DNA from: an uncultured Anaerolineaceae bacterium
GTDB lineage: Bacteria; Chloroflexota; Limnocylindria; Limnocylindrales; CSP1-4
Direction of reading: 5' to 3'
DNA: 64,000 bases
NCBI GenBank assembly: GCA_964425305.1
Contig: CAYRMQ010000001.1
Location: 1,786-65,785, forward strand
Below are positions 39,499 to 64,000 of this stretch, piece by piece (the stretch's first letter is position 1; every line of letters starts with the position of its first letter). Position numbers and translations under genes: made by a program. The notes below the pieces were generated by a model that was not told where the DNA came from, made no database searches, and saw nothing but the letters and a program-made list of their open reading frames with translations.

Positions 39499-40266
39499 TC
39501 ACGCTACGGCCGGCTCCTCGATCTTTCGCTCCGGGCGGAAGTCGGCGGCTGGGCGCGTCGTGTCGAGAAGGAAACGCCAACGATCGCCCCGGTAGAGCGC
39601 CTCTGTATAGCGCAGTGGGTCCAGCGCCGCCGAGTAAGCCACACCCTGGATTAAGATCAGTGGCGAGCCGACAGGCACGCCTAGCACACGCGCCTCATCA
39701 CCGCGCCCTATGACGGCCTCGATCGTGTCGCGCGTTGACTCGATCCGGGCACCGACGCCAGCCATCAGCTCGCTCAGCGAGCCAGTGAGGTCGGCTTCGA
39801 GCAGTAGCGAGTAGCGCGCAGGCAGATACGAGACGTGCAGTGCCGCCGGCTCGCCCTCGACGAGCCTCAGCCGGCGCATGAAGACGACGCCAGCTTCGAC
39901 CGGTAACGAAAGCGCAGCAGCGATGTTTGACGGAGCGCGGACGAGACCGGCCTCTAGCACACGCGTCTCGAAGCCGATGCCCTGTGCGCGCATGGCGGCA
40001 GAGAAACTGAGCGACTGTGACGGCCCATGCGAGATCTTGGGCGGAGCGACGAATGTGCCCTTGCCCGGCTGCCGAAAGATCAGTCCATCGCCCACGAGTC
40101 GGTCTAATGCCTTGCGGGCTGTCATCCGACTGACTCCGAAACGTTCGGAGAGCTCGGCTTCCGAGGGGACCTGTGCGAGGGCGGCTAGGTCGCCGGACCG
40201 GATGCTCCCGCGCAACTCTTCTTCAATCTGGATGTAGAGGGGTATAGGTGACTCCCGGACAACCAT
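39499..40266 (-). CDS. GntR family transcriptional regulator, HutC subfamily (UTRA effector domain)
   Basis: wHTH VPSEAELSERFGVSRMTARKALDRLVGDGLIFRQPGKGTFV plus a UTRA-sized C-terminal domain. It lies 5 nt downstream of the kinase gene. Confidence 0.9.
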   Translation of the reverse strand: MVVRESPIPLYIQIEEELRGSIRSGDLAALAQVPSEAELSERFGVSRMTARKALDRLVGDGLIFRQPGKGTFVAPPKISHGPSQSLSFSAAMRAQGIGFETRVLEAGLVRAPSNIAAALSLPVEAGVVFMRRLRLVEGEPAALHVSYLPARYSLLLEADLTGSLSELMAGVGARIESTRDTIEAVIGRGDEARVLGVPVGSPLILIQGVAYSAALDPLRYTEALYRGDRWRFLLDTTRPAADFRPERKIEEPAVA

Positions 40267-40271
40267 TCAAC

Positions 40272-41783
40272 CTACCTCGTTTCCGCGGCTAGCCGGTTAC
40301 TCAGCGGGGCCAATCTCTCAACCGCATCCAGATATGAAGCGTACACCTGTTCATACCGGTTCACCCATGGCTGATGCGGTCGCAGTCGTCGCTTCTTCTG
40401 CTGGATGTGCCCCGCCAGCCCGACTGACAGAGCGGCCAAGACGGCAGCGCCAACGGCTGGGCCTTGAGGATGAGCCAGCCTCGTCGGCTGGCCCAGAACG
40501 GCCGTCACTATGGAGCGCCACAGATGACTCTCGCTGCCGCCACCGCCTAGGCTGGGTGTACCCATGGAAATGCCCTTCTCGATGAAGATGTCGCGGCAGC
40601 TGCGTAGCGAGAACGCGACGCCTTCCAAGACAGCGCGGCAGAGATGACCCCTTCCGTGGGCCGACGAGAGCCCGATGAAGGCTCCCCGCAGGAGCGGGTC
40701 CCAGTGGGGCGTTCGCTCGCCTTCGAGGAAGGGCAGGAACAGCAAACCTCCGGCGCCCGGCGGCAGGCCCGAGGCCTCCAAATCCATTTCCGCATATACC
40801 TCACTAGGGGTGCCCGGCTCACGAGCGAAGACCGTTTCGCGGAGCCACGTATACGAGGTGGCAGCGGTGTTTGTTGCTCCCAGGTGATACCAGAGACCGG
40901 CGACCGCATGCGGATAGGTCAGGATTCGACGATCGGGTTGCGGTTGATCAACAACGACTACGACCGTGCCCGTGCTGGCGATCTTGACCAAGGAGGACCC
41001 TGCGCGCGTCGCACCGACTGACACAAGCTCCGCAGCCGTGTCAGTCGCACCGACACAGACCGGTACGCCGGCGGTCAGGCCGGTCCGATGCGCCCACTTG
41101 CGGGTCAGGGCGCCGGCGATCGAGCCGGCCGGGGCAATCGCGGGTAGCTGAGCGGCTTCGAGCCCGGCCTCGCGAGCGAGATCCCACGCCCAGGTCTGTG
41201 TCCGCGGGTCATACATCGCCGTACCCTGGGCGTCGCTCGGATCGATGGCCGCCTGACCGGTTAGCTCGAAGCGGACGTAGTCCTTCTGGGTCAGCATCAG
41301 GTGCACTCGTGACCAGGAATCGCCCAGCTGTTGACGGAGCCAGACGAGCTGCGGGAACGTCCAGCCCGTGGTTAGCTCGACGAGAGTCCGTTCGAAGAAA
41401 CTCGCTCCGAACTCGCTGCGCAGACGTGGCACGACGCTCGCCGGTCGAGCATCCCAGCCGAGCAGCGATCGGGTCAAAGGCACACCCTGGGCGTCGAGCA
41501 GCACACCGACATGGGCGGGTGCGGTGATGCCAATGGCCTCGATACGCCGATTACCTGCGGCCGCGGAGCACTCGCGCAGCACTGTTGTGGCCGCGCGCAA
41601 CCAGTCTCGTGGCTGCTGGCTGACCTCGCCATCGAGGCCGCGCCTTGTTGCATAGCCGACCGAACGCGTCTGCAAGACACCGCCCGCCTCGTCGAGAAGA
41701 ACGGCCTTACATGCGCTGGTGCCGAGGTCGATGCCGATCGTGGCACGCGGAGCGCGTCGTCGCTTGCTCACGTTCTCACCCAT
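40272..41783 (-). CDS. FGGY family carbohydrate kinase (xylulokinase-like)
   Basis: N-terminal IGIDLGTSACKAVL, VGATDTAAE and the C-terminal GGGGSES..W motif. 503 aa. Confidence 0.9.
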   Translation of the reverse strand: MGENVSKRRRAPRATIGIDLGTSACKAVLLDEAGGVLQTRSVGYATRRGLDGEVSQQPRDWLRAATTVLRECSAAAGNRRIEAIGITAPAHVGVLLDAQGVPLTRSLLGWDARPASVVPRLRSEFGASFFERTLVELTTGWTFPQLVWLRQQLGDSWSRVHLMLTQKDYVRFELTGQAAIDPSDAQGTAMYDPRTQTWAWDLAREAGLEAAQLPAIAPAGSIAGALTRKWAHRTGLTAGVPVCVGATDTAAELVSVGATRAGSSLVKIASTGTVVVVVDQPQPDRRILTYPHAVAGLWYHLGATNTAATSYTWLRETVFAREPGTPSEVYAEMDLEASGLPPGAGGLLFLPFLEGERTPHWDPLLRGAFIGLSSAHGRGHLCRAVLEGVAFSLRSCRDIFIEKGISMGTPSLGGGGSESHLWRSIVTAVLGQPTRLAHPQGPAVGAAVLAALSVGLAGHIQQKKRRLRPHQPWVNRYEQVYASYLDAVERLAPLSNRLAAETR

Positions 41784-41802
41784 TTGGAATGGTGACGATA
41801 CG

Positions 41803-41823
41803 ACACTAGACAGGTATAGTGTG
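41803..41823. promoter_or_regulatory. operator site 1, ACACTAGACAGGTATAGTGTG (kinase/E1-alpha divergent region)
   Basis: Shares ACTAGACAGGTATA with sites 3, 5 and 6 and contains the -10-like TATAGT. Lies 20 nt from the kinase ATG. Confidence 0.6.
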
Positions 41824-41875: not shown

Positions 41876-42898
41876 TTGTCAGACCCGACCACGCTGCCCG
41901 CAGTCGAGGCCGACTTGTCCACCGTCCCGGCGCCGCCGGACCTCGACGGCCCGCTTCTCTTCGACGGTGTCGAGCGGGAATTGGCCGTTGAACTTTACCG
42001 CCGCATGGCGCTGATCCGCGAGTTCGAGCAGCGCGTGAACAAGCTCTTCCTGCAGGGTCGCATCCCTGGAACGATCCATCTTTCGCATGGCCAGGAGGCC
42101 TGTGCCGTTGGAGGCGCCGCTGCGCTCCGCGAGAGTGACTGGGTCACCCTGACGCACCGTGGCCATGGCCAGGCGCTAGCCAAGGGTGTCTCAGCGCGTT
42201 CGCTGATGGCCGAGCTATTCGCGCGGGAGACGGGCTGTTGTCGAGGCATGGGCGGCTCGCTGCACGTTGGCGACTGGTCGATGGGCGCTCTGCCGGCGAT
42301 TGCGATAGTCGGTGCCTCTATTCCGATCTCGGCGGGCATGGCCTATGCGGCCAAGGCCCGCGGGGAAGATCGAGTGGTGCTTTGCTTCACCGGCGACGGG
42401 GCGACGACAGAAGGCGACGCCCACGAGGGGTACAACTTGGCCACGCTATGGAACCTGCCGGTCGTCTTCCTGTGCGAGAACAACCTGTACTCGATCTCGA
42501 CGCCGGTCGAGCGTCAGGCACTGGTGACTTCGGTCGCCGAGCGCGTCAAGGCCTACGGCCTGCGCTCGATGGTCGTAGATGGTAACGACGTGCTGTCGGT
42601 CTACAGGGCCGCATCTGAGGCAATTGGGCTGGCCCGCAAGGGCGCCGGGCCGACGCTCGTCGAGTGCCTGACGTATCGCCAGGGCGGGCACAAGCGCGAC
42701 GATCCGGCGACCTACCGTCCGCGCGACGAGGTGAAGCTCTGGCTCTCGCGCGACCCGCTGGACCGCATGCGCAGGGCATTGGTCGACGCCGGCCTGGCAG
42801 CCGAGGCGGAACAGGCCGAAGCCGCAGCGGGCGCGACCATCGACGACGCGGTCGCCTTCGCCGAGGACAGCCCGCCCGCCAGCGGCCTGCTGCCATGA
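41876..42898 (+). CDS. thiamine-diphosphate-dependent dehydrogenase E1 component alpha subunit (acetoin/pyruvate dehydrogenase type)
   Basis: Reads GTIHLSHGQEA, and TPP motif GDGATTEGDAHEGYNLA..NN. TTG at 41876 has GGAGAG 6 nt upstream. The track's GTG at 41819 lies inside the operator. Confidence 0.85.
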   Translation: MSDPTTLPAVEADLSTVPAPPDLDGPLLFDGVERELAVELYRRMALIREFEQRVNKLFLQGRIPGTIHLSHGQEACAVGGAAALRESDWVTLTHRGHGQALAKGVSARSLMAELFARETGCCRGMGGSLHVGDWSMGALPAIAIVGASIPISAGMAYAAKARGEDRVVLCFTGDGATTEGDAHEGYNLATLWNLPVVFLCENNLYSISTPVERQALVTSVAERVKAYGLRSMVVDGNDVLSVYRAASEAIGLARKGAGPTLVECLTYRQGGHKRDDPATYRPRDEVKLWLSRDPLDRMRRALVDAGLAAEAEQAEAAAGATIDDAVAFAEDSPPASGLLP

Positions 42899-43896
42899 AG
42901 ACCGTCATCGAGGCCCTACGCGAGGGGCTGGCCGGCGAGATGGAGCAGGACCCGGACGTCTTCGTGATGGGCGAGGACATCGGCATCGGTGGTTCATTCC
43001 ACCTGACGCTGGGACTGCTCGAGCGCTTCGGCCCGGAACGGATTCGTGACACACCCGTCTCCGAAGCCGGCTTCGTCGGTCTTGGCGTCGGTGCCGCCGT
43101 TGCTGGCATGCGACCGGTGATCGACTTCCAGTACGGCGACTTCCTGCTCTGCGCCGCCGACCAGCTTATCCAGCAGGCCTGCAAGCTGCGCCTGATGTCG
43201 GGCGGTCAGGTGCATGTGCCGCTGACACTGCACGCGCCGACTGGCGCGTCCGGGCGTGGGGCCCAGCACGCCAACTCGATCGAGAACATCTTCTACGGCG
43301 TGCCCGGCTTGATCGTCGGCCTGCCGTCGACGCCGTATGACGCCAAGGGCATGATAACCACCGGTATACGCACCGACGACCCGGTGCTGATCTGCAGCCA
43401 CAAGCACCTGTACGGCTCCAAGGGACGAAAGATCGAAGCATCGACCGCGGTCGAGGCCGTTCCCGACGAACCGTACGAGATCCCCATTGGCCAGGCCGTG
43501 GTGCGCCAGCCAGGCACGGACGTGACCATTGTCGGCGCACTACTGATGGTCCACCGAGCGCTCCAGGCGGCCGAAGCACTGGCCGGCGAAGGCATCTCGG
43601 CGGAGGTGATCGACATCCGGTGGGTCGCGCCGCTCGACACCCAGACGGTGATCGAATCCGTCCGGCGCACCGGACGGCTGCTCGTCGTCGAGGAGGGTCC
43701 CGGACTGGGTGGATGGGGTGCCTCGGTCGCCGCAGCGGTCGCCGACGAAGCGCTCGACGCGCTTGACGCACCAATCCGGCGGCTCACTGGACCTGACCAC
43801 CCGATGCCGTTTGCGCCGCATCTCGAAGCCGCACTGGTGCCCACCGCCGAACGGATCTGCCAGGTCGCCCGTGAGCTGACCGGCGCCTCGTCATGA
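42895..43896 (+). CDS. E1 component beta subunit
   Basis: Met78 of ORF 42664..43896 in an ATGA overlap with the alpha stop. Reads FVMGEDIG, RIRDTPVSEAGFVG and a transketolase-C-like end. Confidence 0.9.
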   Translation: MKTVIEALREGLAGEMEQDPDVFVMGEDIGIGGSFHLTLGLLERFGPERIRDTPVSEAGFVGLGVGAAVAGMRPVIDFQYGDFLLCAADQLIQQACKLRLMSGGQVHVPLTLHAPTGASGRGAQHANSIENIFYGVPGLIVGLPSTPYDAKGMITTGIRTDDPVLICSHKHLYGSKGRKIEASTAVEAVPDEPYEIPIGQAVVRQPGTDVTIVGALLMVHRALQAAEALAGEGISAEVIDIRWVAPLDTQTVIESVRRTGRLLVVEEGPGLGGWGASVAAAVADEALDALDAPIRRLTGPDHPMPFAPHLEAALVPTAERICQVARELTGASS

Positions 43897-45017
43897 AACT
43901 AGACGTGGTCATCCCCGAAGTCGGCGAGGCAGGCATGGAGGTGACCTTTGCCGGCTGGCTGCGCGCTGAGGGCGACGAGGTCCGCGAGGGCGATCCCCTC
44001 TTTGAGCTGGACACGGCCAAGTCGATCATGGAGGTACAGGCTTTTGCCAGCGGCACACTCACCGGCTTGCGTGTCTCCCAAGGAGATCCGGTTTCTCCTC
44101 AGCAGGTCGTGGCGCAAATCGAGACGCAGCAGACGGCTGAGCCCAGAGGGCAGATCGCGGCCACTGACGCGGCCGAGCCGCCGCCTGCCGCGAGCTATCA
44201 GGCAGCACAGCCAAGCTCCTCCTCCACTGCCGAGCCGGCCGCCACTTCGGTTGATCGCGCGGGTCAAGCCAGCCCTCGTGCTCGCCGACTGGCGGCCGAG
44301 CGCGGCATAGACCTTGGCACGCTCGAGGGCAGCGGGCCGGGCGGCATTATCACCGAGCGTGATGTACTCGGTGTCCGCGACCAGCCTTCCGAATCCGAGC
44401 GCGTACGCCAGGCCGTCGCGCGCCGTACGGTGGAGTCCTGGCAAACGATCCCCCACTTCTCGCTTCGGCTCGAGGCCGACGTCACCGACGCGCTGCAGGG
44501 GCTCCGGCCAATGGCGCTCGTCAGTAGCGTGGCTGTGCGCGCTCTGATTGAGCATCCGGAGTACAACCTGGGCTGGGATGCCGACCGACCGGCTACGCGC
44601 GAGCGGGTCGATTTGGGCATCCTGGTCGACACGCCCAACGGCCTGCTGCTGCCGGCCGTGCGTCGCGCCGAGAAGCTGGAACCTACCCAACTCGAGGCGG
44701 CCATCCGAGCCGCGGCTGAGAGAGCCCGTGCGGGCGCGCTCGACGTGCAGGACGCCGGATCTCACAGCATCACCATCTCGAACCTGGGCATGTTCGCCGT
44801 GGACGAGTTCACTGGCGTCATCCCGACCGGTGACGTCCTGCTGCTCTCGCTCGGGCGCGTGCGAGAGGTGCCGCGCCACCGTGGCGGCGAAGTCGTCAAT
44901 CGTCGCGTGCTCACGATCACGCTCAGCGCCGACCATCGGGCGCTGTCCGGAGCCGACGCTGCGCGCCTGCTGACCACGTTCGAGCGCATCCTCGCCGCGA
45001 TCGCGAGCGCCGACTGA
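43893..45017 (+). CDS. dihydrolipoamide acyltransferase (E2) with a single lipoyl domain
   Basis: ATGA overlap with the E1-beta stop. Lipoyl-Lys context LDTAKSIMEV, peripheral subunit-binding SPRARRLAAERGIDL, and catalytic DHRALSGADAARLL. Confidence 0.9.
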   Translation: MKLDVVIPEVGEAGMEVTFAGWLRAEGDEVREGDPLFELDTAKSIMEVQAFASGTLTGLRVSQGDPVSPQQVVAQIETQQTAEPRGQIAATDAAEPPPAASYQAAQPSSSSTAEPAATSVDRAGQASPRARRLAAERGIDLGTLEGSGPGGIITERDVLGVRDQPSESERVRQAVARRTVESWQTIPHFSLRLEADVTDALQGLRPMALVSSVAVRALIEHPEYNLGWDADRPATRERVDLGILVDTPNGLLLPAVRRAEKLEPTQLEAAIRAAAERARAGALDVQDAGSHSITISNLGMFAVDEFTGVIPTGDVLLLSLGRVREVPRHRGGEVVNRRVLTITLSADHRALSGADAARLLTTFERILAAIASAD

Positions 45018-45442
45018 TGATCGAGCTCGAGCTGCGCACCGAGCGCAAGATCCAGGCACTGGACGTTACCGACCTCGTATCCGCGCGCGCCTGGCCAGAC
45101 GGCTTCGTCTGGGTCTCCTGCCCGCACACGACTGCCGCCCTCGTCCTCGGCGAGTCGGACCAGGAAATGCTCGAGGATTACGAGCGCGTGGCGGCCGAGC
45201 TGTTCGCGCCCTACGAGCCGTTCAAGCACCACAAGAACGACAATCCGAATGCTGCCGCACACCTGGTCTCATCGCTCGCCGGCAGCCAGTTGCTGTTGCC
45301 CGTGTTCGGCGGTGGGCTGGCCCTGGGGGAGTACCAGCGACTGGTGTTCCTCGAGCTCGATGGTCCGCGCCGCCGGCGCCTACAGGTTGCCGGCCTGCCT
45401 GTTGCCCACCAAGCCATAGCCACGCGAGAGGTGGTCCGGTGA
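45017..45442 (+). CDS. YjbQ/UPF0047 family protein (secondary thiamine-phosphate synthase-like)
   Basis: CPHTTAALVLGESD and GEYQRLVFLELDGPRRR, typical of YjbQ. The start overlaps the E2 stop (TGATG). Confidence 0.8.
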   Translation: MIELELRTERKIQALDVTDLVSARAWPDGFVWVSCPHTTAALVLGESDQEMLEDYERVAAELFAPYEPFKHHKNDNPNAAAHLVSSLAGSQLLLPVFGGGLALGEYQRLVFLELDGPRRRRLQVAGLPVAHQAIATREVVR

Positions 45443-45903
45443 AGGTCGCGGTCGGCGCTGACGAGCTCGGCTACCTGCTCAAGGAGGCCGTCAAGGACCA
45501 TCTCGAGGGGTTGGGCCACGAGGTGCTCGACTTCGGCGTGGAGCGCGACGAGGTCGCAGACTATCCGGACGTCGCCGAGGCCGTGGCACGAGCGATCGCC
45601 GCCGGGCGAGCGGAGCGGGCGGTGCTCTGCTGCGGTACGGGCCTGGGCATGGCCATCACAGCCAACAAGGTCCCCGGCATCCGGGCCGGCACCGTGATGG
45701 ATCCGTACTCGGCGGAACGGCTGGTCAGGTCGAACAACGCGCAGATCATCTGCATGGGTGGTCGCACCATCGGGCCCGAGGTGGCCAAGCTGCTGGTCGA
45801 GCACTTCCTGGCCTCTGAATTCCAGGGCGGCAACTCAGCGCGTAAGGTGGCCAAGATCGAGGCACTGGACGCGCGGCACGCAGGCGCGAGCTCGGAGAGC
45901 TGA
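45439..45903 (+). CDS. rpiB: ribose-5-phosphate isomerase B / LacAB family sugar-phosphate isomerase
   Basis: GTG start in a GTGA overlap with the upstream stop. CCGTGLGMAITANKVPGIRA and ERLVRSNNAQIICMGGR. Confidence 0.85.
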   Translation: MKVAVGADELGYLLKEAVKDHLEGLGHEVLDFGVERDEVADYPDVAEAVARAIAAGRAERAVLCCGTGLGMAITANKVPGIRAGTVMDPYSAERLVRSNNAQIICMGGRTIGPEVAKLLVEHFLASEFQGGNSARKVAKIEALDARHAGASSES

Positions 45904-45918: not shown

Positions 45919-46620
45919 TCAGCCAGCGCTTCGGATGGCAACGGGGAAGCTGGACGGGCGCCTGCTGACACGCTCTTCCACGCCAAGGTACGCGGTGCGC
46001 TGCGCTTCGCCGATGCTCGTCGTGTGGGCTCGCACAATGGTCCAGTCGGGGCGGCGGACGGCGAGGAGCGCCGCACTCACGACAGCTGCCCCCCGCTCCG
46101 TCGCGTCGACGGCGTCGTCTGCCTCTATCCAGAAGCGCAGCTCGACCAGGCCGTCGCGCGCGAAGCCAGAGGCATCTCCTTCCGGTAGCGCCGCCAGCAG
46201 TTGATTCAGCATCGCCCGCGTGAACTGCCTCTCGGAGCCGGCCCCGGCAGCCGCCCTGAGCATCACGCACCACGCGGCGCCACGAGCCGGATCGCCGACG
46301 CGCCGTTCGAGGCCAACGGCAGTCTCGGTCAATCGCTCTTCTGCGGAGGTGACGTGGATCAGCACGATCTGAACACCGAGGCCAATCTCGCTCACTGCCG
46401 CTTCGTAGCGCTCGGTCGCCTCGCGCGCGACGCTTGCCGCGTCCTCACCCTCCTGCCACCAGCGCGTCTCGAAGCCATGGCCGCGGCCGCTCGCGGGCGG
46501 GTACTGCAGCCAGCTGTCCGGGCCGCCCACGGCAGCCAGCAGCCGCTCCTGTTGCTGCGCGTCGATGGGCGGCTGGGACTCGGCCTGATCGACGGTGATC
46601 AGCACGCTCCACTCCTTCAT
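45919..46620 (-). CDS. unknown protein, 233 aa, internally duplicated (paralogue B)
   Basis: ATGA overlap with paralogue A. The two halves each carry W-x-[VL]..., F-x-[TL]-R-[WF]-W-x-E-x-x-D and V/W-x-I-V-x-x-H-x-T-S. No family recognised. Confidence 0.7.
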   Translation of the reverse strand: MKEWSVLITVDQAESQPPIDAQQQERLLAAVGGPDSWLQYPPASGRGHGFETRWWQEGEDAASVAREATERYEAAVSEIGLGVQIVLIHVTSAEERLTETAVGLERRVGDPARGAAWCVMLRAAAGAGSERQFTRAMLNQLLAALPEGDASGFARDGLVELRFWIEADDAVDATERGAAVVSAALLAVRRPDWTIVRAHTTSIGEAQRTAYLGVEERVSRRPSSFPVAIRSAG

Positions 46621-47731: not shown

Positions 47732-47754
47732 ACTAGTCTATACGTGTATACTAC
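47732..47754. promoter_or_regulatory. operator site 2, ACTAGTCTATACGTGTATACTAC (cupin/Ldh2 divergent region)
   Basis: Contains tandem GTCTATAC and GTGTATAC boxes and the -10-like TATACT. It is 16/18 identical to the reverse complement of site 4. Confidence 0.6.
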
Positions 47755-48896: not shown

Positions 48897-48927
48897 ACGT
48901 GCCTAACCGGAGACCGCGAGGATAACG

Positions 48928-52923: not shown

Positions 52924-53002
52924 ACAGCGACCGTTCGTCATGTCCACGACCCTACCCGGCGCGCCCAACTAGGCCGGGTAGGGTCCGTGGTCTGAGCCCA
53001 GC

Positions 53003-56107: not shown

Positions 56108-56163
56108 GCCATGACTCCTGGCTATGACTGCTGCGGCCGCTCAGCAGGGGCTCAAGGCCGCGC

Positions 56164-56181
56164 TGTACACGTATATACTAG
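56164..56181. promoter_or_regulatory. operator site 4, TGTACACGTATATACTAG (amidohydrolase/MBL divergent region)
   Basis: The reverse complement CTAGTATATACGTGTACA matches site 2. Contains GTATATAC and TATACT. Confidence 0.6.
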
Positions 56182-56185
56182 CGCC

Positions 56186-57082: not shown

Positions 57083-57129
57083 AGCGCCAAGCCTGCGTGA
57101 TCGTAGCCTAGGAAGGCGGCGCGTCCGAG

Positions 57130-57155
57130 TAGACAGGTCTAGACAGGAATAGTAG
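57130..57155. promoter_or_regulatory. operator site 5, TAGACAGGTCTAGACAGGAATAGTAG (upstream of ABC module 2)
   Basis: TAGACAGG occurs twice as a direct repeat. Contains the palindromes TAGAC-AG-GTCTA and GTCTAGAC. Lies 91 nt upstream of the SBP start. Confidence 0.6.
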
Positions 57156-57245: not shown

Positions 57246-58619
57246 ATGAAGGGTTTCACCCGCCTCGTTGCCGTACTCATCGGCGGCATCGTGCTGGCAG
57301 CGGGATGCACGCAGGCCGTACCAACCACCCCAGCTCCGCCCGGGACGCCGCCCAGCACGCCGGAGGCTACTGATCAGGCGCCATCCACTCCAACTCCAGC
57401 GGAAGAAACTCCTGACGCACGCCAGGTCGAGCTGACCTTCATGAACTGGTTTTACGGCGGCGACATGGGTGCTGTCTACGACGAGTTCATCGCCGAGTTC
57501 CTGGCGCAGGAGCCGCGCGTGACGGCCATCAACGTGGAGACGCAGCCGTTCGTGCGCTACCACGATGTGCTGAACGTCAAGCTCGCCGGCGGTAACGCGC
57601 CGGACATCTCCTGGATCCACGCTTCTCTTCAGGACTCCTATATCGAGGCCGGTCGACTCTACGATCTGCGACCGATCCTCGAGTCACTCGACGGGTTCGA
57701 CCTGGACGACTTCACTGCCCAGTCGCTCGAGCCCTGGTCGAGGGGCAATGCGCTGTACGCCCTGCCCTTCACCAACGCGACCAACGTAGTCTTCTACAAC
57801 ATCGACATTTTCGAGCAGGCTGGCATACCGACGCCGGAGGAGCTCGAGGCGCAGGGCAACTGGACCTGGGAGACGCTGAAGGAGACGGCCAGGCAACTGG
57901 TCGGCAGCGGCGCCGCCCGCTTCGGGTTCCACTTTGGGAACAACATCTACACCAATGGCTGGCGCAACCTGGTGGAAATCTGGGGCCCCTATGGTGGCGG
58001 GCCGTGGTCGGATGACGGGCTGACCTGCCGCTTCAACGCGCCGGAGACGGTCGAGGCGACGCAGCTCGTGCACGACATGGTCTATGTGGACAGGAGCCAC
58101 CCGGAGCCAGGGCTCGACGTCGACTTCGCCACCGGCGATGTGGGCATGTCGCTAACTCGACCGAACTTTGCCTTCCGCTGGCAGGACGGCGGCTTCCGCT
58201 GGGGCGTCGTGCGTCAGCCCGACGGTCCACGAGGGTTCGTGCCCTCGCTGGCCCAGAACGGCATCGCCGTCCACGTCGGCTCGCCCAACCCCGACCTGGC
58301 GGCACTCTTCATCGCCCACACCCTGACACGTGAGAGTGCGATTCGCTTCCAGGTCAACACGCCGTCCAACCGCGCCTCGACGTTCACGCCTGAGATACTC
58401 ATCCAGGCCGTGCCCGACTTCACACCCGAGCAAATGGAGCGAACAGTCATCCGTGCGCTCGGCAACGACCAAGTGGTATTCGAATACGCCCATCGCAACT
58501 TCGGACCACTCTTCTCGAACTCGCACCAGATCTTCGACGGACAGATGTGGAGGCCGGACGCTGATGTCCAGCAGGTCCTCGACAGCATCTGCGACGCCGT
58601 CACGCCGCTGCTCGGCTAG
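57246..58619 (+). CDS. ABC transporter solute-binding lipoprotein, module 2
   Basis: AGGAGGAG SD before Met12 of ORF 57213..58619. Lipobox VLAAGC. Paralogue of 51553..52923. Confidence 0.9.
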   Translation: MKGFTRLVAVLIGGIVLAAGCTQAVPTTPAPPGTPPSTPEATDQAPSTPTPAEETPDARQVELTFMNWFYGGDMGAVYDEFIAEFLAQEPRVTAINVETQPFVRYHDVLNVKLAGGNAPDISWIHASLQDSYIEAGRLYDLRPILESLDGFDLDDFTAQSLEPWSRGNALYALPFTNATNVVFYNIDIFEQAGIPTPEELEAQGNWTWETLKETARQLVGSGAARFGFHFGNNIYTNGWRNLVEIWGPYGGGPWSDDGLTCRFNAPETVEATQLVHDMVYVDRSHPEPGLDVDFATGDVGMSLTRPNFAFRWQDGGFRWGVVRQPDGPRGFVPSLAQNGIAVHVGSPNPDLAALFIAHTLTRESAIRFQVNTPSNRASTFTPEILIQAVPDFTPEQMERTVIRALGNDQVVFEYAHRNFGPLFSNSHQIFDGQMWRPDADVQQVLDSICDAVTPLLG

Positions 58620-58664
58620 TGGCGTGACCGTCGGCTGCCTGCGGACGCCGGCGACAGCCCCGAA

Positions 58665-59606
58665 GTGGCAGACGTAGTCGAACAGCGGGAAGGCGGGCTT
58701 CGGGCCCGCCTCTCGCTGCCCTCGCTCAACTATTGGCAGCGCGATAGAGCGAGCGGGTACGGCTTCATCGGACCCCAGCTCGCAGGCTTCCTGGTCTTCG
58801 TGCTGGGCCCGATCCTTGCCGTCTTTTGGTTCAGCCTGCACGAATGGAACCTGGTCTTCGGGACGTTCGAGTTCACCGGCCTGGGCAACTACGCACGGCT
58901 CACCAGCGATCCCGAGTTCGGGCCGGTGGCGCTCAACTCGGTTCTGTTCGCGTTCGGCTATGTGCCTCTGAACGTGGTGCTCGGTCTCGCTGCCGCCGTA
59001 GCGGTCAACCGGGCGGTACTGGGCCTCGCTCTCTTCCGGACGATGTATTTCGCGCCTGTCGTCGTGTCGATCGTGGCCTGGACGATCGTTTGGCGTTTCA
59101 TGCTCCAGGGCGACGGAGCAATCAACGGCATCGTCCAGGTCCTCACCGGGGAACCCGGCGCAAACTGGCTGCGCGAGCCCGGTTACGCGCTGGTCTGGGT
59201 GGTGATCGTCCAGGTGCTCAAGACAGCCGGTCTCAGCATGATTCTCTTCTTGGCGGCGCTTCAGGGCATCCCACGCGAGTACGAGGAGGCAGCACGCGTT
59301 GACGGAGCGGGCAGCCTTGGGGTCTTCCTGCGGATCACGCTGCCGCTGATCACGCCTTTCGTCTTCCTGGTAACCGCGCTATCGGTGATCAACTCGCTCA
59401 AGACGTTCGCACTCATATACCTCCTTACGCGGGGAGGGCCGGGGAACGCTACGACCGTACTCGCTTACTACATCTACGAACAGGGCTTCCAGCGCTTCGA
59501 GATGGGCTACGCGAGCACGCTCGCGGTGATCCTGTTCATCGTCGTGATGGGTCTCACTGCTCTGCAGTTTGCTATGCGCAAGCGCTGGGTCTACGCCGAG
59601 GAGTGA
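58665..59606 (+). CDS. ABC transporter permease 1, module 2
   Basis: EAA loop EEAARVDGAGSLGVFLRITLP. About 65 percent identical by eye to 53003..53938. Confidence 0.9.
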   Translation: MADVVEQREGGLRARLSLPSLNYWQRDRASGYGFIGPQLAGFLVFVLGPILAVFWFSLHEWNLVFGTFEFTGLGNYARLTSDPEFGPVALNSVLFAFGYVPLNVVLGLAAAVAVNRAVLGLALFRTMYFAPVVVSIVAWTIVWRFMLQGDGAINGIVQVLTGEPGANWLREPGYALVWVVIVQVLKTAGLSMILFLAALQGIPREYEEAARVDGAGSLGVFLRITLPLITPFVFLVTALSVINSLKTFALIYLLTRGGPGNATTVLAYYIYEQGFQRFEMGYASTLAVILFIVVMGLTALQFAMRKRWVYAEE

Positions 59607-59607
59607 T

Positions 59608-60474
59608 GTGACAACTGTCGTCTCGACCGTGACCGGCCTGCGCAAGCGATGGATGGCACTACTGCTGGCGGCGATCATGAGCGTACTGGCCGTTCCGCTG
59701 CTGTTCCCACTGTGGTGGATGCTGAGCTCAACGTTCAAAGGCACACACGAGGTCTTCGCCTACCCACCGGTGATCATTCCCGAAGCTTTACGGCTGGACA
59801 ACCTGCGGCAGGTCTTCACCGAGCAGCCATTTGCCCTCCAGTACTGGAACAGCCTGTACATAGCCGCGCTCAATGTCGTCGGCACGCTGCTCGTCGCTTC
59901 ACTTGCCGGCTACGCCTTTGCGCGCATCAGGTTCCCCGGCCGCAGCCTGCTCTTCGTGCTGCTTCTCAGCTCGCTGCTGATGCCCATCGAGGTGATGATC
60001 ATCCCGCTCTATGTACTGATGCGCGAGCTGGGCTGGCTGGGCACGCATTTGCCCCTGATAGTCGAGCCGATCTTCGGCGCGCCGGCCGTCATCGGCACGT
60101 TCCTGATGCGCCAGTACTTCTTGAGCCTTCCGGTCGAGCTCGAGGACGCAGGTCGAATGGATGGCCTGGGACGCTGGGGCATCTTTCGCCATATCGCCCT
60201 GCCGCTCGCCAGACCGGCACTGGCGACGCTGGCGATCCTGACCTTCCTGCACAGCTGGAACTCGTTCTTGGAGCCACTTATCTTCGTCTCCGGGGCCCCC
60301 AACCTGATGACCATCCCCGTGGCCATCGACCAGTACCGAAGCTTCTACGGTGAGCCGCTCTGGCAGGTGCAGATGGCCGCGTCGTCGCTGGCTGTCTTTC
60401 CGGTGCTGATAGTGTTCCTGCTGGCCCAGCGCCACTTCGTCCAGGGCATCGCCCGCGTCGGCATCCATGGTTGA
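59608..60474 (+). CDS. ABC transporter permease 2, module 2
   Basis: The GTG sits 1 nt after the upstream stop, with GAGGAG upstream. EAA loop EDAGRMDGLGRWGIFRHIALP. Confidence 0.85.
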   Translation: MTTVVSTVTGLRKRWMALLLAAIMSVLAVPLLFPLWWMLSSTFKGTHEVFAYPPVIIPEALRLDNLRQVFTEQPFALQYWNSLYIAALNVVGTLLVASLAGYAFARIRFPGRSLLFVLLLSSLLMPIEVMIIPLYVLMRELGWLGTHLPLIVEPIFGAPAVIGTFLMRQYFLSLPVELEDAGRMDGLGRWGIFRHIALPLARPALATLAILTFLHSWNSFLEPLIFVSGAPNLMTIPVAIDQYRSFYGEPLWQVQMAASSLAVFPVLIVFLLAQRHFVQGIARVGIHG

Positions 60475-61522
60475 GAGCGGCCCTCCCCTGCGGATGGCCA
60501 TCGTCGGCGTGGGCTGGGCCGGTACCCGCCAGGCGACGGCAGCCCGCGAGCTCGACGGCGTGGTCGAGGTGGTCATGCTGGGCGACAGCGATCCCGGGCA
60601 TCTGCGCCGGATCGGCGACGAACTGGGCATTGCACGCACGACCACCGAGCTCGAGGACATCCTCGGCGATCCCGAGATCGACGCCGTGTCGATCTGCACG
60701 CCTCACGCGCTGCATGCTCTACAGGCCATCGCGGCGGCGCGGGCAGGCAAGCATGTCCTCGTCGAGAAGCCGATGGCGCTGACCGTCGAAGACGCGACCC
60801 AGATGCTTGAGGCCGCCGACGCCGCTGGTGTCCAGCTATATGTGGCTGAGAACCAGGTGTACGAGAGCTGGGCAACTCGCCTGCGCGAGATTGTCCGCAG
60901 TGGTGAATACCTGGGCGAGCTGGTCTTCGCGACGGTTCTGTCGGGCTATCGCGCGCCCGATCCACGCTATCCCGGACGACGCGAGTGGTTGACGCTGCCC
61001 GAGATGGGAGGAACGGGCACCTGGATGCTCCAGGGCATCCATGCCGTTGCTCAGTTGCGCTACGTGCTGGGCGAGGTAGAGACGGTCTTCATTGGCGAAC
61101 ACCGGACGAGCTCCTTTGGCCGCTCCGACCTGGAGGCGACCATGGCCGGCACGCTCGTACTCGATAGCGGCGTGGCCGTCTCGTTCGTGCAGACGACCGA
61201 GGTGCACCTGGGGCAGCGACTGGCCGGCTATCGCCTCTACGGCGACGAAGGCACGGTCGTCGGTCACAGGGAGGCATACGAGATCTACCGCCAGGACCTG
61301 CGAGACGACGGCCGCCCGGTAGTCTTCAGCTACCCACCCCAAGAGCTGTCGTCGTACGCCCTGGAGCTGGCTGCGTTCGCCGATCAAGTGGCCGGACGGG
61401 CGGCCGGTCCGACCAGCGGCGAGAGCGAACGACGCAGCCTGGCGGTGCTCGTGGCCGGTCTCGAATCGGCGCGCAGCGGGAAGCCGGTCGCTCTGCACGA
61501 GCGATTCCCCATGCTCGCCTGA
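60467..61522 (+). CDS. Gfo/Idh/MocA family oxidoreductase
   Basis: Rossmann MAIVGVGWAG and the EKP motif KHVLVEKPMAL. 351 aa. Overlaps the permease stop by 8 nt. Confidence 0.85.
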   Translation: MVESGPPLRMAIVGVGWAGTRQATAARELDGVVEVVMLGDSDPGHLRRIGDELGIARTTTELEDILGDPEIDAVSICTPHALHALQAIAAARAGKHVLVEKPMALTVEDATQMLEAADAAGVQLYVAENQVYESWATRLREIVRSGEYLGELVFATVLSGYRAPDPRYPGRREWLTLPEMGGTGTWMLQGIHAVAQLRYVLGEVETVFIGEHRTSSFGRSDLEATMAGTLVLDSGVAVSFVQTTEVHLGQRLAGYRLYGDEGTVVGHREAYEIYRQDLRDDGRPVVFSYPPQELSSYALELAAFADQVAGRAAGPTSGESERRSLAVLVAGLESARSGKPVALHERFPMLA

Positions 61523-61533: not shown

Positions 61534-62763
61534 TCAGGCGGACTGGTACGCGATCAGCAGGCGCTCGAGCCCGCGCATGCGGGCATTGTCGCGCCAGGCC
61601 GGCACGGCCTCGATCAGCTCCATCCGGCGCAGGCGCGTTAGCAGGACGCTGAAGGCCGTCTCCAACTCGACTCTGGCCAGCTGGGCACCCAGGCAGAAGT
61701 GGGCTCCGTGGCTGAAAGTGACGTGGCGGTTTGGATGTCGGGAGACGTCGAACCGATTGGGGTCGGCGAACTGCTCGGGATCGCGGTTGGCCGCGCCCAG
61801 CAGGAAGTGCACAAGCTCGCCGGCACGGATAGTGTGCCCGCCGAATTCGGCGTCCTGACGCGCGATGCGCAGTGACCGCTGGCTAACCGGCTCATAGCGC
61901 AGGATCTCCTCGACGGCCCTCGGCAACAGGCTCGGATTGCCGCGCAGGCGATCGAGCTCGGTGGCATTGGAAAGCAGCACCAGCGTCCCGGTGCCGATCG
62001 TGTTGGTCGTCGTTTCGTGGCCCGCTACGGCCAGCAGAACCAGGTTGGATATGACTTCCTCCTCGCTGGCCCGGCCCTCCTCCATGCGAGCCAGCAGCAG
62101 GCTGATGACGTCATCGCCTCTCGTCCTTCCGGCGTCGCGGGCGAGCCGGCGCAGGTACTCGGCGAGGTCGGCCCAAGCCTGTACATAGGCATCCACTTCA
62201 CCGACCTCGAGCTGGCCCGAAGCGAGGAAGGAGGCGACCACATCGGCCCAGCCCTTGACCCGGTCGACATCCTCCCGTGGGATGCCCAGCAGATCGGCGA
62301 TGACCGTCATGGGCAGCGGATAGGCGAAGTCCCTTACAAGGTCGATCTCGCCCGAGTGGTCGGCGTCGGCCAGCAGTTGCTCCGCGAGGGTCCGGATGCG
62401 CGGTCGCAGAGCCTCGACCTGGCGTGGCGCAAAGGCCAACGCGGCGAGTCCACGGCGCCGCGCGTGTTCGGGTGCGTCGGAGCTGATCATCTGCGTTTCG
62501 CCGCGCTCGATGATCTGCCGGGCTCGCGCATCGTTGCCACCGAGTGGCGCCAGCAGCCTGGCCAGCCGGCGCGACGAGAAACGTGCCGAGTCGCGCAGTC
62601 CCGCGACGACGTCCGAGTAGCGGCTGACGAACCAGGCCCCATAGGCCTCGCTCCGGTAGACGGGTTGCTCGGATCTCAGCCGGTCATAGTAGGGATAGGG
62701 ATCGATGACGAAATCGCGGCTCCAGGGCAGATATGGGTCGCTGGCCGTCTCCGGACCAACCAT
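61534..62763 (-). CDS. cytochrome P450
   Basis: Met77 of ORF 61534..62991. I-helix AGHETT, EILRYEP (ExxR) and heme loop FSHGAHFCLG. 409 aa. Confidence 0.9.
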   Translation of the reverse strand: MVGPETASDPYLPWSRDFVIDPYPYYDRLRSEQPVYRSEAYGAWFVSRYSDVVAGLRDSARFSSRRLARLLAPLGGNDARARQIIERGETQMISSDAPEHARRRGLAALAFAPRQVEALRPRIRTLAEQLLADADHSGEIDLVRDFAYPLPMTVIADLLGIPREDVDRVKGWADVVASFLASGQLEVGEVDAYVQAWADLAEYLRRLARDAGRTRGDDVISLLLARMEEGRASEEEVISNLVLLAVAGHETTTNTIGTGTLVLLSNATELDRLRGNPSLLPRAVEEILRYEPVSQRSLRIARQDAEFGGHTIRAGELVHFLLGAANRDPEQFADPNRFDVSRHPNRHVTFSHGAHFCLGAQLARVELETAFSVLLTRLRRMELIEAVPAWRDNARMRGLERLLIAYQSA

Positions 62764-62820
62764 CAGTCTATCGACCAGCCGTCCTTCACGGTCATGAGTC
62801 CGCCTCGTGCCAGTTTCATG

Positions 62821-62840
62821 ACTAGACAGGTCTATACTAC
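62821..62840. promoter_or_regulatory. operator site 6, ACTAGACAGGTCTATACTAC (P450/MFS divergent region)
   Basis: Contains the palindrome TAGAC-AG-GTCTA, a GTCTATAC box and TATACT. Confidence 0.6.
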
Positions 62841-62844
62841 CTCC

Positions 62845-64000
62845 GTGAGTGCGGCGCGTCCACCGGGTCAGACGTTTATCGAAGGCGCGGATCCGCACAG
62901 CAGGCCGTGGCTGCCGGCACTGGCCAACACGTCGCTGCGCATCTACCTGCTGGCCCAGGCGGTGAGCTACAACGGCACCTGGATGTACCACGTTGCCGTG
63001 GGCTGGCTGGCCATGGAGCTCACCGGCTCACCGCTGATCGTGGGCGCAGTCACGGCCGCCCGAGCCCTGCCGATCATCCTGCTGGTCGTACCAGCCGGAG
63101 TGCTCGCTGACCGGCTGGACCGGCGCCTGCTCATCATCGCGGCCAGCCTCGTGGCCATGTCGTCGTCGCTCGTGCTGGCGTGGCTGGCCCTCAGCGACGG
63201 CTTGACCGTTGGCTGGCTGATCGGCCTGTCGGCGTTGACCGGCCTGGCCAATGCCATCGAAGTACCCACTTTCAACTCGTTCGTCGGGCAGCTGGCCGGG
63301 CGGCGGATGATATCCAACGCGATCGCGCTCAACGCGATCGTATTCAACCTGGCCCGCCTGTCCGGGCCGGCCGCGGCAGGCCTCATCATCGCCGGCTTCG
63401 GCGCCGCCATCGTCTTCGTGGTAAACGCACTGACGTACGCGCCGCTGGTGGTTGGCCTGCTGCTGATACCCGCGGATAACGTGCGCGAGCGAGGTGCGCT
63501 CGGGCTTGCCGCCCTGCGCCAGGCCGGCGCCTTCGTGCGCTCCTCGACCGAGATCCGCGGGACCCTGCTGCTGCTGGCCGCCAACTCGCTGCTCGTCACG
63601 GGCTACCTCGTCCTTGCCCCCGCTGTTGCCGACCTGCTCGCCGCCGGTCCCGAAGGGGTGGGTTTCCTCTTCTCGGGAGCGGGCGCAGGCGCCCTGATCG
63701 CCGGCCTCCTGCTAGCGCTACTTCGCGAGCGGCCCGCGGGGCGCGACGCGCTGATGCTGGCCGCCGTGTGCACGGGCGTGGGGCAGCTGCTGGTGGCCGT
63801 CTCGGGAGTGCTGCCACTATCCATCGCGGCGATGGCTCTGGCCGGGGGTGGCATGGTCGCTTTCAGCGCGATCTCCAATGCGCAGGTCCAGGTGATCGTG
63901 CCTGACGCGCTGCGCGGCCGCGTCATGGGCTTCTACGCCCTGTCCGTGGCAGGCCTGGTACCCCTGGCCGCCGTCATCGTCGGGATGCTGGCAGAAGCCG
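62845..64000 (+). CDS. MFS transporter (MFS_3/EntS-like), 3' end beyond the window
   Basis: Open frame from GTG 62845 to the window end (385 codons) with repeated hydrophobic helices (LRIYLLAQAVSYNGTWMYHVAVGWL...). Absent from the track because no stop lies in the window. No SD; the GTG sits 6 nt after TATACT. Confidence 0.75.
   Translation, partial: MSAARPPGQTFIEGADPHSRPWLPALANTSLRIYLLAQAVSYNGTWMYHVAVGWLAMELTGSPLIVGAVTAARALPIILLVVPAGVLADRLDRRLLIIAASLVAMSSSLVLAWLALSDGLTVGWLIGLSALTGLANAIEVPTFNSFVGQLAGRRMISNAIALNAIVFNLARLSGPAAAGLIIAGFGAAIVFVVNALTYAPLVVGLLLIPADNVRERGALGLAALRQAGAFVRSSTEIRGTLLLLAANSLLVTGYLVLAPAVADLLAAGPEGVGFLFSGAGAGALIAGLLLALLRERPAGRDALMLAAVCTGVGQLLVAVSGVLPLSIAAMALAGGGMVAFSAISNAQVQVIVPDALRGRVMGFYALSVAGLVPLAAVIVGMLAEA

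Follow-up and report, generated by a model that had tools for sequence, protein, structure and literature searches.

The right-hand part of the window (the whole 64,000-nucleotide stretch of DNA analysed here) carries transporter and enzyme genes on both strands, with one regulator gene at its left end. This raises the question of whether the genes are controlled together, and by what. As judged from sequence comparison, it is quite probable that six sites in the intergenic gaps serve as operators for the HutC-subfamily GntR regulator whose gene lies in the locus itself, at least eight being counted with two sites beyond the window. The regulon predicted in this way by comparative genomics is a single-repressor regulon, real but ordinary as a type of regulation. 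The genes of the 24-kb cluster are taken to serve nutrient breakdown, and the motif recurs beside the regulator in uncultured Chloroflexota-like genomes.

Genes of the locus

The genes and operons between 39.5 and 64 kb are as follows.

39499..40266, − strand, regulator gene, GntR winged-helix and UTRA domains (HutC subfamily), 255 aa
40272..41783, − strand, FGGY sugar kinase, xylulokinase-like (Pfam FGGY_N, FGGY_C)
41876..45903, + strand, operon of E1 alpha, E1 beta, E2 (lipoyl acyltransferase), YjbQ/UPF0047 and RpiB (Pfam)
45919..47704, − strand, operon of a cupin (Pfam Cupin_2) and two paralogous proteins
47826..51353, + strand, operon of an Ldh_2-family dehydrogenase, a class-III aminotransferase and a 2,4-diaminopentanoate dehydrogenase-like protein (Pfam)
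51553..54785, + strand, ABC transporter 1, solute-binding protein and two permeases (Pfam SBP_bac_1, BPD_transp_1)
54821..56107, − strand, amidohydrolase/deacetylase-family metallohydrolase (Pfam Amidohydro_1)
56222..57082, + strand, metallo-beta-lactamase-fold hydrolase (Pfam Lactamase_B; ATG 56222 is the best start candidate)
57246..61522, + strand, ABC transporter 2 (binding protein, two permeases) and a GFO/IDH/MocA oxidoreductase (Pfam; gene calls on the identical contigs L041 and L042)
61534..62763, − strand, cytochrome P450, 409 aa (Pfam p450; start from the gene call on L041)
62818..64000, + strand, MFS_3 transporter gene, continuing beyond the window end (Pfam MFS_3; 431 aa on L041)

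The HutC-subfamily gene is the sole gene of this region with a DNA-binding domain in the Pfam search, as an earlier note on this DNA had held. Only 5 nt separate the end of the kinase gene from the start codon of the regulator, and judging by this spacing both genes are probably transcribed together, starting in the region of site 1. The kinase scores 340 bits against NCBIfam XylB, below the cut-off of 380. Likewise, the amidohydrolase scores 365 bits against PRK09237 (cut-off 371), and the NCBIfam matches of the Ldh_2-operon proteins are all under equivalog cut-offs.

The E1 operon probably starts at TTG 41876, behind GGAGAG in the sequence. The same set of genes adjoins regulator orthologues in other loci; no E3 accompanies the E1/E2 pair in this locus. 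The Pfam search of the cupin operon gave only Cupin_2, and the two paralogues, which are 28% identical to each other and have homologues in the loci L004, L039 and L040, were without a family match. The two ABC modules are also paralogous. The start codon of the first, ATG 51553, is preceded by GAGGAGG.

A palindromic motif in six intergenic gaps

The six candidate sites of the earlier note were found letter for letter where it had placed them, and all come down to the same imperfect palindrome of 16 bp, nCTA(G/T)AC-AG-GT(A/C)TA(G/C)n, with the conserved core CTAGAC-AG-GTATAG. The half-sites are complementary at five of the six position pairs, and many of the sites give good scores whichever strand is read. 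The best-conserved bases are the central ACAGGT. The predicted operators are listed below, with scores from an external matrix built on 20 sites from other genomes, which were themselves selected with a window-derived matrix.

41805..41820, + strand, operator 1, ACTAGACAGGTATAGT, 29.2 bits; divergent gap between the kinase-regulator genes and the E1 operon
47737..47752, + strand, operator 2, TCTATACGTGTATACT, 23.9 bits; divergent gap between the cupin and Ldh_2 operons
51430..51445, + strand, operator 3, ACTAGACAGGTATACT, 28.8 bits; about 108 nt upstream of where the first binding-protein gene starts
56162..56179, + strand, operator 4, two registers, GCTGTACACGTATATA or TGTACACGTATATACT (16-mer from 56162 or 56164), 17.1 bits; divergent gap between the amidohydrolase and metallo-beta-lactamase-fold genes
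57128..57153, + strand, operator 5, AGTAGACAGGTCTAGA and TCTAGACAGGAATAGT, overlapping copies offset by 10 bp (57128-57143 and 57138-57153), 19.7 and 22.1 bits; about 93 nt upstream of where the second binding-protein gene starts
62821..62836, + strand, operator 6, ACTAGACAGGTCTATA, 26.4 bits; divergent P450/MFS region

These six sites and the second copy at site 5 are the top seven matches in all 64 kb. Operator 4 is the weakest (21.8 bits with the window matrix). The runner-up, at 34140, reaches 10.0 bits, which leaves a gap of 7 bits below the weakest site. The first 39 kb, in which the earlier note had seen no copy by eye, gave none in the matrix scan either. In 200 dinucleotide shuffles of the window, matches of at least 16 bits occurred with a mean of 0.025. 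When the gaps were shuffled one by one, the observed score was reached in none of 2000 shuffles for five sites and in 2 of 2000 for site 4. By word count, TAGACAGG occurs five times and TATACTA four times in 64 kb, every copy being on the + strand and inside the sites.

Each gap between 39.5 and 64 kb that is obliged to hold a promoter has a site, namely the four divergent gaps and the two upstream of the ABC modules, the same gaps that the earlier note had named. The flanks of the sites are without mutual similarity; therefore, the sites are not duplicated segments. An extra conserved ATACGA box lies 10 bp upstream in about one third of the sites, and near operator 1 it is at 41798-41803.

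The description of the motif in the earlier note needs some correction. The GT-N-TA-N-AC boxes that it had assigned to all six sites are present in sites 2, 4, 5 and 6 and missing from sites 1 and 3 in a word search; in the external sites, positions 10-17 read GTATAnWC and the final AC is complete in at most 6 of 20. The identity of 16 of 18 positions between the reverse complement of site 4 and site 2 is correct by direct reading. The resemblance to a DasR-type site did not hold: the sites are not dre, and at most 10 of 16 positions match in register.

Occurrence of the motif in related genomes

A search with the window-derived matrix gave 21 matches of at least 18 bits, against 0.02 expected, in 164 kb of non-redundant related sequence, comprising seven loci with a regulator orthologue or Ldh_2 and 5.4 kb by which the window's own contig is extended. 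Matches were also present in each of two more distant orthologue loci, to which the scan was applied later. In total, nine of nine regulator loci, whose regulators are 61-73% identical, contain at least one match of at least 17.5 bits. All but one of the matches in related genomes sit in gaps upstream of called genes, and in six of the nine loci a site precedes the regulator or its operon. In control loci chosen by Ldh_2, one match was found in 470 kb and none in the 202 kb with a GC fraction of at least 0.6. The motif was absent from Ldh_2 loci of other phyla, in which the stretch fetched holds no regulator orthologue. In other words, the motif lies upstream of orthologous genes where the regulator is present and is essentially absent where the regulator is absent, the pattern by which comparative genomics recognizes a regulon.

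The motif is kept at orthologous gaps, though the encoded proteins are just 45-75% identical. The 16-mer of operator 1 is identical in the orthologous E1 alpha gap of L036, and the gap orthologous to that of operator 2 contains TCTAGACGTGTGTACT in L001 and TCTATACAGGTACACT in L004. It should be mentioned that L001 and L004 were fetched via Ldh_2 and the other regulator loci via the regulator; therefore, only these two are independent for the link between motif and regulator, a link that co-localisation suggests. This comparative evidence supports the claim that the whole locus answers, by way of a common operator, to a single HutC-type regulator, which would be autoregulated because it shares a transcript with the kinase.

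The contig L041, which is 100% identical, extends beyond the window end. The motif was expected to mark further promoters there, and two more sites were indeed found, in the DAO/dehydrogenase and MBL/ApbA divergent gaps. As a result, the regulon would have at least eight operator regions.

The regulator protein

The regulator consists of a GntR domain (PF00392, residues 10-73, E 1.5e-21, over the gathering score) and a UTRA domain (PF07702, residues 95-230, E 5.5e-31). This architecture is common to PhnF, PhnR, HutC, TreR and the LSA1692 family, whose NCBIfam equivalogs match it with E-values of 1e-22 to 1e-37. None of the NCBIfam curated cut-offs was reached (e.g. 126.8 against 275 and 117.5 against 156.8 bits); therefore, the protein has no orthologue among the named members. 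Protein clusters with 59% or more identity to it number at least 120.

The closest solved homologues, with full-length alignment, are NagR (YvoA) from Bacillus subtilis (7.5e-36) and DasR from Streptomyces coelicolor, which belong to the same subfamily and have the same two domains. The identity with NagR is 32% overall and 51% in the DNA-binding domain, a domain that is nearly invariant among the regulator orthologues. NagR and DasR likewise have a 14-16 bp palindromic operator with 4-bp half-sites and six bases between, several such operators before transporter or catabolic genes, and autoregulation. The operator sequence is different: dre is TGGTCT-AGACCA, whereas the sites here are CTAGAC-AG-GTCTAG-like. 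In register with the dre operator A(C/G)TGGTCTAGACCA(C/G)T, the window sites match at 4-9 of 16 positions and their palindromised consensus at 10 of 16. The targets also differ, since those of NagR and DasR are nagA/nagB, GlcNAc transporters and chitin genes, whereas other genes, with no NagB and no PTS, are found here. A further difference is the host, which is probably a member of the Chloroflexota.

In NagR, two arginines, Arg38 and Arg48, read guanine bases, and contacts at the centre of the operator go through the backbone only (PMC4333415). NagR Arg48 and Gly69 are kept as Arg47 and Gly68. In contrast, NagR Arg38 is replaced with Ala37, and this position is Ala, Ser or Thr in seven of seven orthologues. 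These kept and lost residues fit an operator of NagR-like geometry but different sequence. A single dimer would then bind each 16-bp imperfect palindrome through 4-bp half-sites at −7..−4 and +4..+7, with six bases between. The Arg48 equivalent would read G at −4, and the second arginine-guanine contact of NagR and DasR would be absent from both protein and DNA. A parallel from the literature is the GntR-type domain of B. subtilis AraR, in which only the Arg48-equivalent arginine reads guanine, at −4 (PMC4333415); the regulator is predicted to read DNA alike. AraR differs from it in its effector domain, which is of the LacI type, and in the sequence of its operator. The loss of one arginine-guanine contact might offer a natural test of operator specificity in GntR-type domains. 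However, the binding register is uncertain, because the central ACAGGT is best conserved and yet the centre is contacted only on the backbone in NagR.

With respect to the effector, most of NagR's phosphate-binding residues are retained, namely Arg132, Arg134 and Ser163, whereas the residues of NagR in contact with GlcNAc-6-P are replaced (Glu145 with His, Arg211 with Gly and Glu222 with Arg).

Sites, promoters and the direction of control

The GTATA half points at the downstream gene in eight of nine co-directional contexts, every copy in the window is on the + strand, and the right half TATA(G/C)T resembles a −10 hexamer. The motif might accordingly be a promoter element with a direction, or it might bind a different transcription factor encoded elsewhere, with the HutC regulator as a mere passenger; in addition, the surroundings of the orthologous regulators were inspected within about 10 kb on each side. 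We regard this reading as unlikely. The symmetric 16-mer suits a dimeric regulator and not a sigma factor, and no conserved element was found 17 bp upstream. The first 39 kb has other promoters and zero copies. As for another factor, no other DNA-binding protein recurs among the loci (LacI, FCD-type GntR and HTH_31 proteins occur in one locus each), and both the motif and the DNA-binding domain of the regulator are conserved over nine loci.

If the regulator does bind these sites, it might still act as an activator, or as a dual regulator, at some promoters. Activation is known from certain members of the GntR family, the distance from site to start varies from overlap with the start to about 110 nt upstream, and one site serves two promoters in the divergent gaps. 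This seems slightly less probable again, since NagR and DasR, characterised proteins close to the regulator, repress their targets until a sugar phosphate releases them (PMC4333415, PMC4918961), and the sites coincide with −10-like hexamers instead of lying upstream of a −35 element. Chance likeness in AT-rich gaps of a GC-rich genome (54-66% GC against about 68% for the window), or a remnant of segmental duplication or a small mobile repeat, in line with the paralogous ABC modules and with a single 8-mer enrichment (p ~1e-5) that is lost on correction for 65,536 words, is very improbable, because 0-2 of 2000 composition-preserving gap shuffles score as high as the site itself, the flanks have nothing in common outside the motif, and neutral DNA would have been scrambled at the protein divergence seen.

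Repression by the HutC-subfamily regulator is the preferred reading. The + strand start codons follow the sites at distances of 40-110 nt, and the GTATA(G/C)T half is similar to a −10 hexamer (TAnnnT) directed at the downstream gene; the bound regulator would thus block RNA polymerase at each promoter. Some results speak against such a −10 overlap. A conserved −35 element was looked for and not found, and a sigma-70 scan gave 2 promoter-like sites against 1.6 expected. Site 6 and the site at 7448 of L041 overlap called start codons, a poor fit to a −10 role for those genes; operator 6 covers the first MFS codons if the start is ATG 62818 as called, GTG 62845 being an alternative. About 22 genes would be repressed, including that of the regulator itself. 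Among them are two sugar-type ABC transporters and an MFS transporter, and the enzymes comprise oxidoreductases, an aminotransferase, hydrolases, a P450 and the kinase with E1/E2, YjbQ and RpiB. Release would be caused by a phosphorylated intermediate at the UTRA domain, and the product of the FGGY kinase is a plausible candidate.

The regulon and its possible pathway

The analysis provides a well-supported operator motif and target list for the HutC-family regulator, which occurs widely in metagenomes and whose hosts are apparently uncultured. The motif unites about 22 window genes and at least five beyond the window as one functional unit, including the conserved core of kinase, E1/E2, YjbQ and RpiB and the two proteins without a Pfam family. 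This grouping is the best available handle on the compound degraded by the cluster.

A more tentative proposal, to which we give a minor chance, is that the regulon represents a so far undescribed catabolic route of uncultured soil Chloroflexota. The two ABC systems would import a sugar-like, probably amine-bearing compound. Oxidoreductases, the aminotransferase, the amine dehydrogenase and hydrolases would trim it, and the xylulokinase-like FGGY kinase would phosphorylate it. The pyruvate-dehydrogenase-like E1/E2 pair would then cleave the product, with YjbQ and RpiB, and the phosphorylated intermediate would be the inducer of the HutC regulator. This proposal also allows that the regulator may bind otherwise than NagR, as the conservation of the central ACAGGT and the additional boxes offset by 10 bp might indicate; with these boxes, a promoter could take up more than one dimer. 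NanR from Escherichia coli is described as a GntR-family repressor with a (GGTATA)3 operator that binds several dimers (PMC8012715). The sites here contain GGTATA, often with the extra offset boxes, and the likeness can be taken as a lead only; unlike the regulator, NanR is a member of the FadR/FCD subfamily, and its operator has direct repeats of a different period. A weaker copy of the motif lies 10 bp upstream of operator 3, at 51420-51435, with a score of 8.3 bits by the external matrix.

Predicted operator motif and gene layout

All six site strings quoted in an earlier note were found exactly where it had placed them, and they align as one 16-mer, nCTA(G/T)AC-AG-GT(A/C)TA(G/C)n. The notion of a shared motif therefore holds, but the consensus proposed for it, GT-N-TA-N-AC, is present only in sites 2, 4, 5, and 6, which means that it is not the conserved core. 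The best-conserved part is the central ACAGGT, unlike the operator of NagR (YvoA), the characterised HutC-subfamily relative from Bacillus subtilis. The motif is asymmetric, with an AG centre and a right half, GTATA(G/C)T, that resembles a -10 hexamer. In 64 kb there are five copies of the word TAGACAGG and four of TATACTA, all of them on the + strand and within the sites.

Genes and sites between 39.5 and 64 kb. The gene layout is from Pfam annotation; GC content is 63-74% across the window.
39499-40266, - strand, GntR + UTRA regulator
40272-41783, - strand, FGGY kinase
41803-41823, site 1; 16-mer from 41805, ACTAGACAGGTATAGT
from about 41876, + strand, E1 alpha, E1 beta, E2, YjbQ/UPF0047, RpiB
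45919-47704, - strand, two unknown proteins and a cupin
47732-47754, site 2; 16-mer from 47737, TCTATACGTGTATACT
47826-51353, + strand, Ldh_2 dehydrogenase, class-III aminotransferase, 2,4-diaminopentanoate-dehydrogenase-like protein
51421-51449, site 3; 16-mer from 51430, ACTAGACAGGTATACT
51553-54785, + strand, solute-binding protein and two permeases
54821-56107, - strand, amidohydrolase
56164-56181, site 4; 16-mer from 56164, TGTACACGTATATACT
about 56222-57082, + strand, metallo-beta-lactamase-fold protein
57130-57155, site 5; 16-mer from 57138, TCTAGACAGGAATAGT; overlapping copy from 57128, AGTAGACAGGTCTAGA
57246-61522, + strand, second binding protein, two permeases, GFO/IDH/MocA oxidoreductase
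61534-62763, - strand, P450
62821-62840, site 6; 16-mer from 62821, ACTAGACAGGTCTATA
62818 or 62845 onwards, + strand, MFS transporter

This layout means that every gap requiring a promoter between 39.5 and 64 kb has a site; the gaps without one are convergent or lie within operons. The start of the P450 gene is 62763, not the longest-ORF start at 62991. It should be mentioned that the called MFS start, ATG 62818, places operator 6 within the first codons of that gene. An alternative in-frame GTG at 62845 is 7 nt after the TATACT of site 6 and would fit a leaderless transcript.

Significance of the motif

A matrix built from 20 sites, all from other genomes (the external matrix), gave its top scores in 64 kb to the seven window copies (29.2 to 17.1 bits). 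The next match was 10.0 bits, at 34140, and 200 dinucleotide shuffles gave a mean of 0.025 matches of at least 16 bits. This matrix and that built from the window sites (the window matrix) are not fully independent, because the latter first found the external sites. Under a stricter null, in which each gap was shuffled separately with its AT content preserved, none of 2000 trials attained the observed score for five sites, and 2 of 2000 did so for site 4. In an unbiased strand-specific 8-mer scan, CTAGACAG and TAGACAGG ranked first (p about 1e-5); this enrichment is not significant once corrected for 65,536 words, so that the weight rests on the matrix-level test.

The flanks showed no similarity among the sites when the motif was masked, which excludes duplication or a mobile repeat. 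No RNA family was matched by Rfam at the sites; in the whole window Rfam matched only a tRNA gene, at 29268-29340 (- strand), which has nothing to do with the motif. A literature search with motif words returned no relevant paper, and the 12-mers had zero occurrences.

Conservation in related genomes

Homologues of the regulator form at least 120 clusters at 59% identity or more in metagenomes, and one is named as from Candidatus Limnocylindria. Among genomes, the Ldh_2 gene is best matched in metagenome-assembled genomes labelled Anaerolineaceae (L001, 71%) and Chloroflexia (L004, 67%). These relatives make Chloroflexota the probable phylum of the source; an actinobacterial origin, which the GC content might have suggested, was rejected on the same grounds. 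Nine loci with regulator orthologues (61-73% identical) were compared. In seven of them all or most of a core set (FGGY kinase, E1 alpha/beta, E2, YjbQ, RpiB) is beside the regulator, together with variable accessory genes for dehydrogenases, hydrolases, transporters, DAO, ApbA, and P450. The two most distant loci have the kinase and some accessory genes only.

In 164 kb of non-redundant related sequence, consisting of seven of the nine loci and the extension of L041 (the contig identical to the window end), the window matrix found 21 matches of at least 18 bits, against 0.02 expected. Thirty control Ldh_2 loci of other phyla gave one match in 470 kb and none in the 202 kb with GC of at least 0.6. 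The motif is thus essentially absent from these control loci. The two most distant loci also have matches, and in one of them the perfect palindrome TCTAGACGTGTCTAGT precedes a binding-protein gene. L001 and L004, which were retrieved via Ldh_2 and not via the regulator, have both the motif and the regulator on the same contigs.

All matches but one are in gaps upstream of called genes. Among the gaps occupied are the E1a/kinase gap of L033, L036, and L038, the corresponding E1/regulator gap of L034, the YjbQ/DAO gap of L039 and L040, and gaps upstream of E2, Ldh_2, and binding proteins. In L036 the 16-mer at the position orthologous to site 1 is identical to it. A metagenome scan with the 14-mer ACTAGACAGGTATA, which approached co-occurrence from the side of the motif, gave at least 120 matches. 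Those listed were mostly low-GC chance matches (median GC 40%, n = 120), none of which encoded the regulator or core genes, and they are not informative about co-occurrence.

Two loci show additional features. In L033, a cluster of motif-like boxes, TGTATAGACGCC TCTATAGAGATCTATT (10770-10815, 18.9 bits), is located where the regulator orthologue ends, at its stop codon; this gap is convergent and has no obvious promoter. The metagenomic contig L163 has two paralogous regulators of the same clade, 6.5 kb apart (2755-3522 and 10001-10753), with strong motif copies near both; many of its genes look fragmented, perhaps by frameshifts of long-read assembly.

Extension beyond the window

L041 is 100% identical to window positions 57916-64000 and continues for 5.4 kb. 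The MFS gene is followed by DAO (- strand), an NAD-binding dehydrogenase and a cupin (+ strand), a metallo-beta-lactamase-fold gene (- strand), and ApbA (+ strand). A motif copy was found in each of the two new divergent gaps, ACTAGACATGTATGAT (19.2 bits) and ACTGTACAGGTATAGA (21.5 bits); the copies span L041 7448-7463 and 9615-9630, or about 65.4 and 67.5 kb if the numbering of the window is continued. This bears out the prediction of the motif at additional promoters of the cluster. The single HutC-type regulon proposed in the earlier note is supported as an interpretation, with the consensus corrected and the extent enlarged: it runs across the locus as proposed, but continues past the window, which brings the number of predicted operator regions to eight or more, spread over about 28 kb.

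Regulator and proposed operator recognition

The regulator is a HutC-subfamily protein (PF00392 + PF07702), 32% identical to NagR overall and 51% in the DNA-binding domain; it reached no named NCBIfam equivalog cut-off. NagR binds the palindrome GTGGTCTAGACCAC, whose half-sites (-7..-4 and +4..+7) are six bases apart; G-5 is read by Arg38 and G-4 by Arg48, and Gly69 contacts G-7 (PMC4333415). In the regulator, Arg48 and Gly69 are kept as Arg47 and Gly68, and Ala replaces Arg38. All seven aligned orthologues have Ala, Ser, or Thr here, and their recognition helix and wing are nearly invariant.

When aligned in register with dre, the NagR/DasR operator, the palindromised motif ACTAGACAGGTCTAGT agrees with it in length and half-site spacing and matches it at 10 of 16 positions. 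G is kept at -4, and A is at -5. The joint loss of one arginine and its guanine seems to fit the assignment of the motif to the regulator. AraR provides a precedent for the missing arginine-guanine contact (PMC4333415).

A single dimer on the 16-mer would have the half-site spacing of NagR on dre. An arrangement of two NagR-like dimers on adjacent GT-N-TA-N-AC boxes 10 bp apart was set aside, because both would require the same major groove. Directly upstream of the 16-mer, ATACGA is found at -6..-1 in about 9 of 28 sites. Copies are at window 41798-41803 and in the regions of L001 9905, L033 8307, L034 9706, L039 14732, L040 14145, and L041 7441. Sites 3 and 5 have weaker copies at a 10-bp offset, and a TAGAC box at the same 10-bp offset as ATACGA. 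One possibility is that ATACGA represents a third half-site, another that it belongs to the divergent promoter; together with the offset copies it could reflect binding by more than one dimer.

The phosphate-binding residues Arg133, Arg135, and Ser165 of NagR are conserved and Thr90 is changed to Ser, whereas the sugar-contacting Glu145, Arg211, and Glu222 are replaced. Judged from these residues, the effector is likely to be a phosphorylated compound other than GlcNAc-6-P; one plausible candidate would be what the FGGY kinase, probably transcribed together with the regulator, produces.

Putative mode of action

The distance from the sites to the + strand start codons downstream of them is 40-110 nt (E1a TTG 41876, Ldh_2 ATG 47826, SBP1 ATG 51553, MBL about 56222, SBP2 ATG 57246), and the right half faces the downstream gene in eight of nine co-directional contexts across loci. 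In the simplest reading, the operator would overlap the -10 region, and bound repressor would exclude RNA polymerase. No conserved -35 element was found at the sites, and a sigma-70 scan gave two promoter-like sites where 1.6 were expected, a result that leaves the -10 idea neither strengthened nor weakened. Two predicted operators overlap called start codons.

Site 1 is 21 nt away from the start of the kinase-regulator pair. Between the kinase stop codon and the regulator start there are 5 nt, and a motif copy lies ahead of the regulator or its operon in six of the nine orthologue loci. Co-transcription with the kinase and autoregulation, as proposed earlier, are therefore probable. Within the first codons of the regulator gene there is a weak motif-like sequence, TGTAGAGGGGTATAGG (40233-40248); the window matrix gives it 14.7 bits but the external matrix only 9.5, so that it is probably without significance. 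The stretch from operator 5 to the second binding-protein start codon contains a half-site-like ACTAGACGTGAAGGGG (8.3 bits, 57206-57221).

Relation to known systems and possible substrate

By analogy, the present system would resemble the NagR/DasR type of regulon in its mode of working. It is not a dre regulon, however: tests for the dre operator sequence, the second guanine-reading arginine, the residues that contact GlcNAc, and GlcNAc target genes were all negative. What emerges from comparative genomics is a predicted regulon of the HutC kind, belonging to an uncharacterised clade with a distinct operator.

The pyruvate-dehydrogenase-like E1 alpha/beta and lipoyl E2 (41876-45903; loci L033-L040) have no E3 in the locus, and are linked to the xylulokinase-like kinase, YjbQ, and RpiB in most regulator-carrying genomes. 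To our knowledge, no described pathway has this combination, nor did the literature reveal one when YjbQ, RpiB, and FGGY were searched jointly. The genes present suggest that the substrate is sugar-like and possibly amine-bearing, because sugar-type ABC importers, an aminotransferase, and an amine-dehydrogenase-like protein are combined with a deacetylase-family hydrolase, DAO, and a kinase with thiamine-dependent E1/E2.

The adjacent genes at 45919-46620 and 46617-47408 (- strand) encode paralogues that are 28% identical (E 5e-13) and without a match in Pfam or NCBIfam. Both proteins seem to be internally repetitive, with (R/S)(F/W)W(I/Q)E as the motif that recurs (RWWQE, RFWIE, SWWIE), and homologues are found in the regulated loci L004, L039, and L040.
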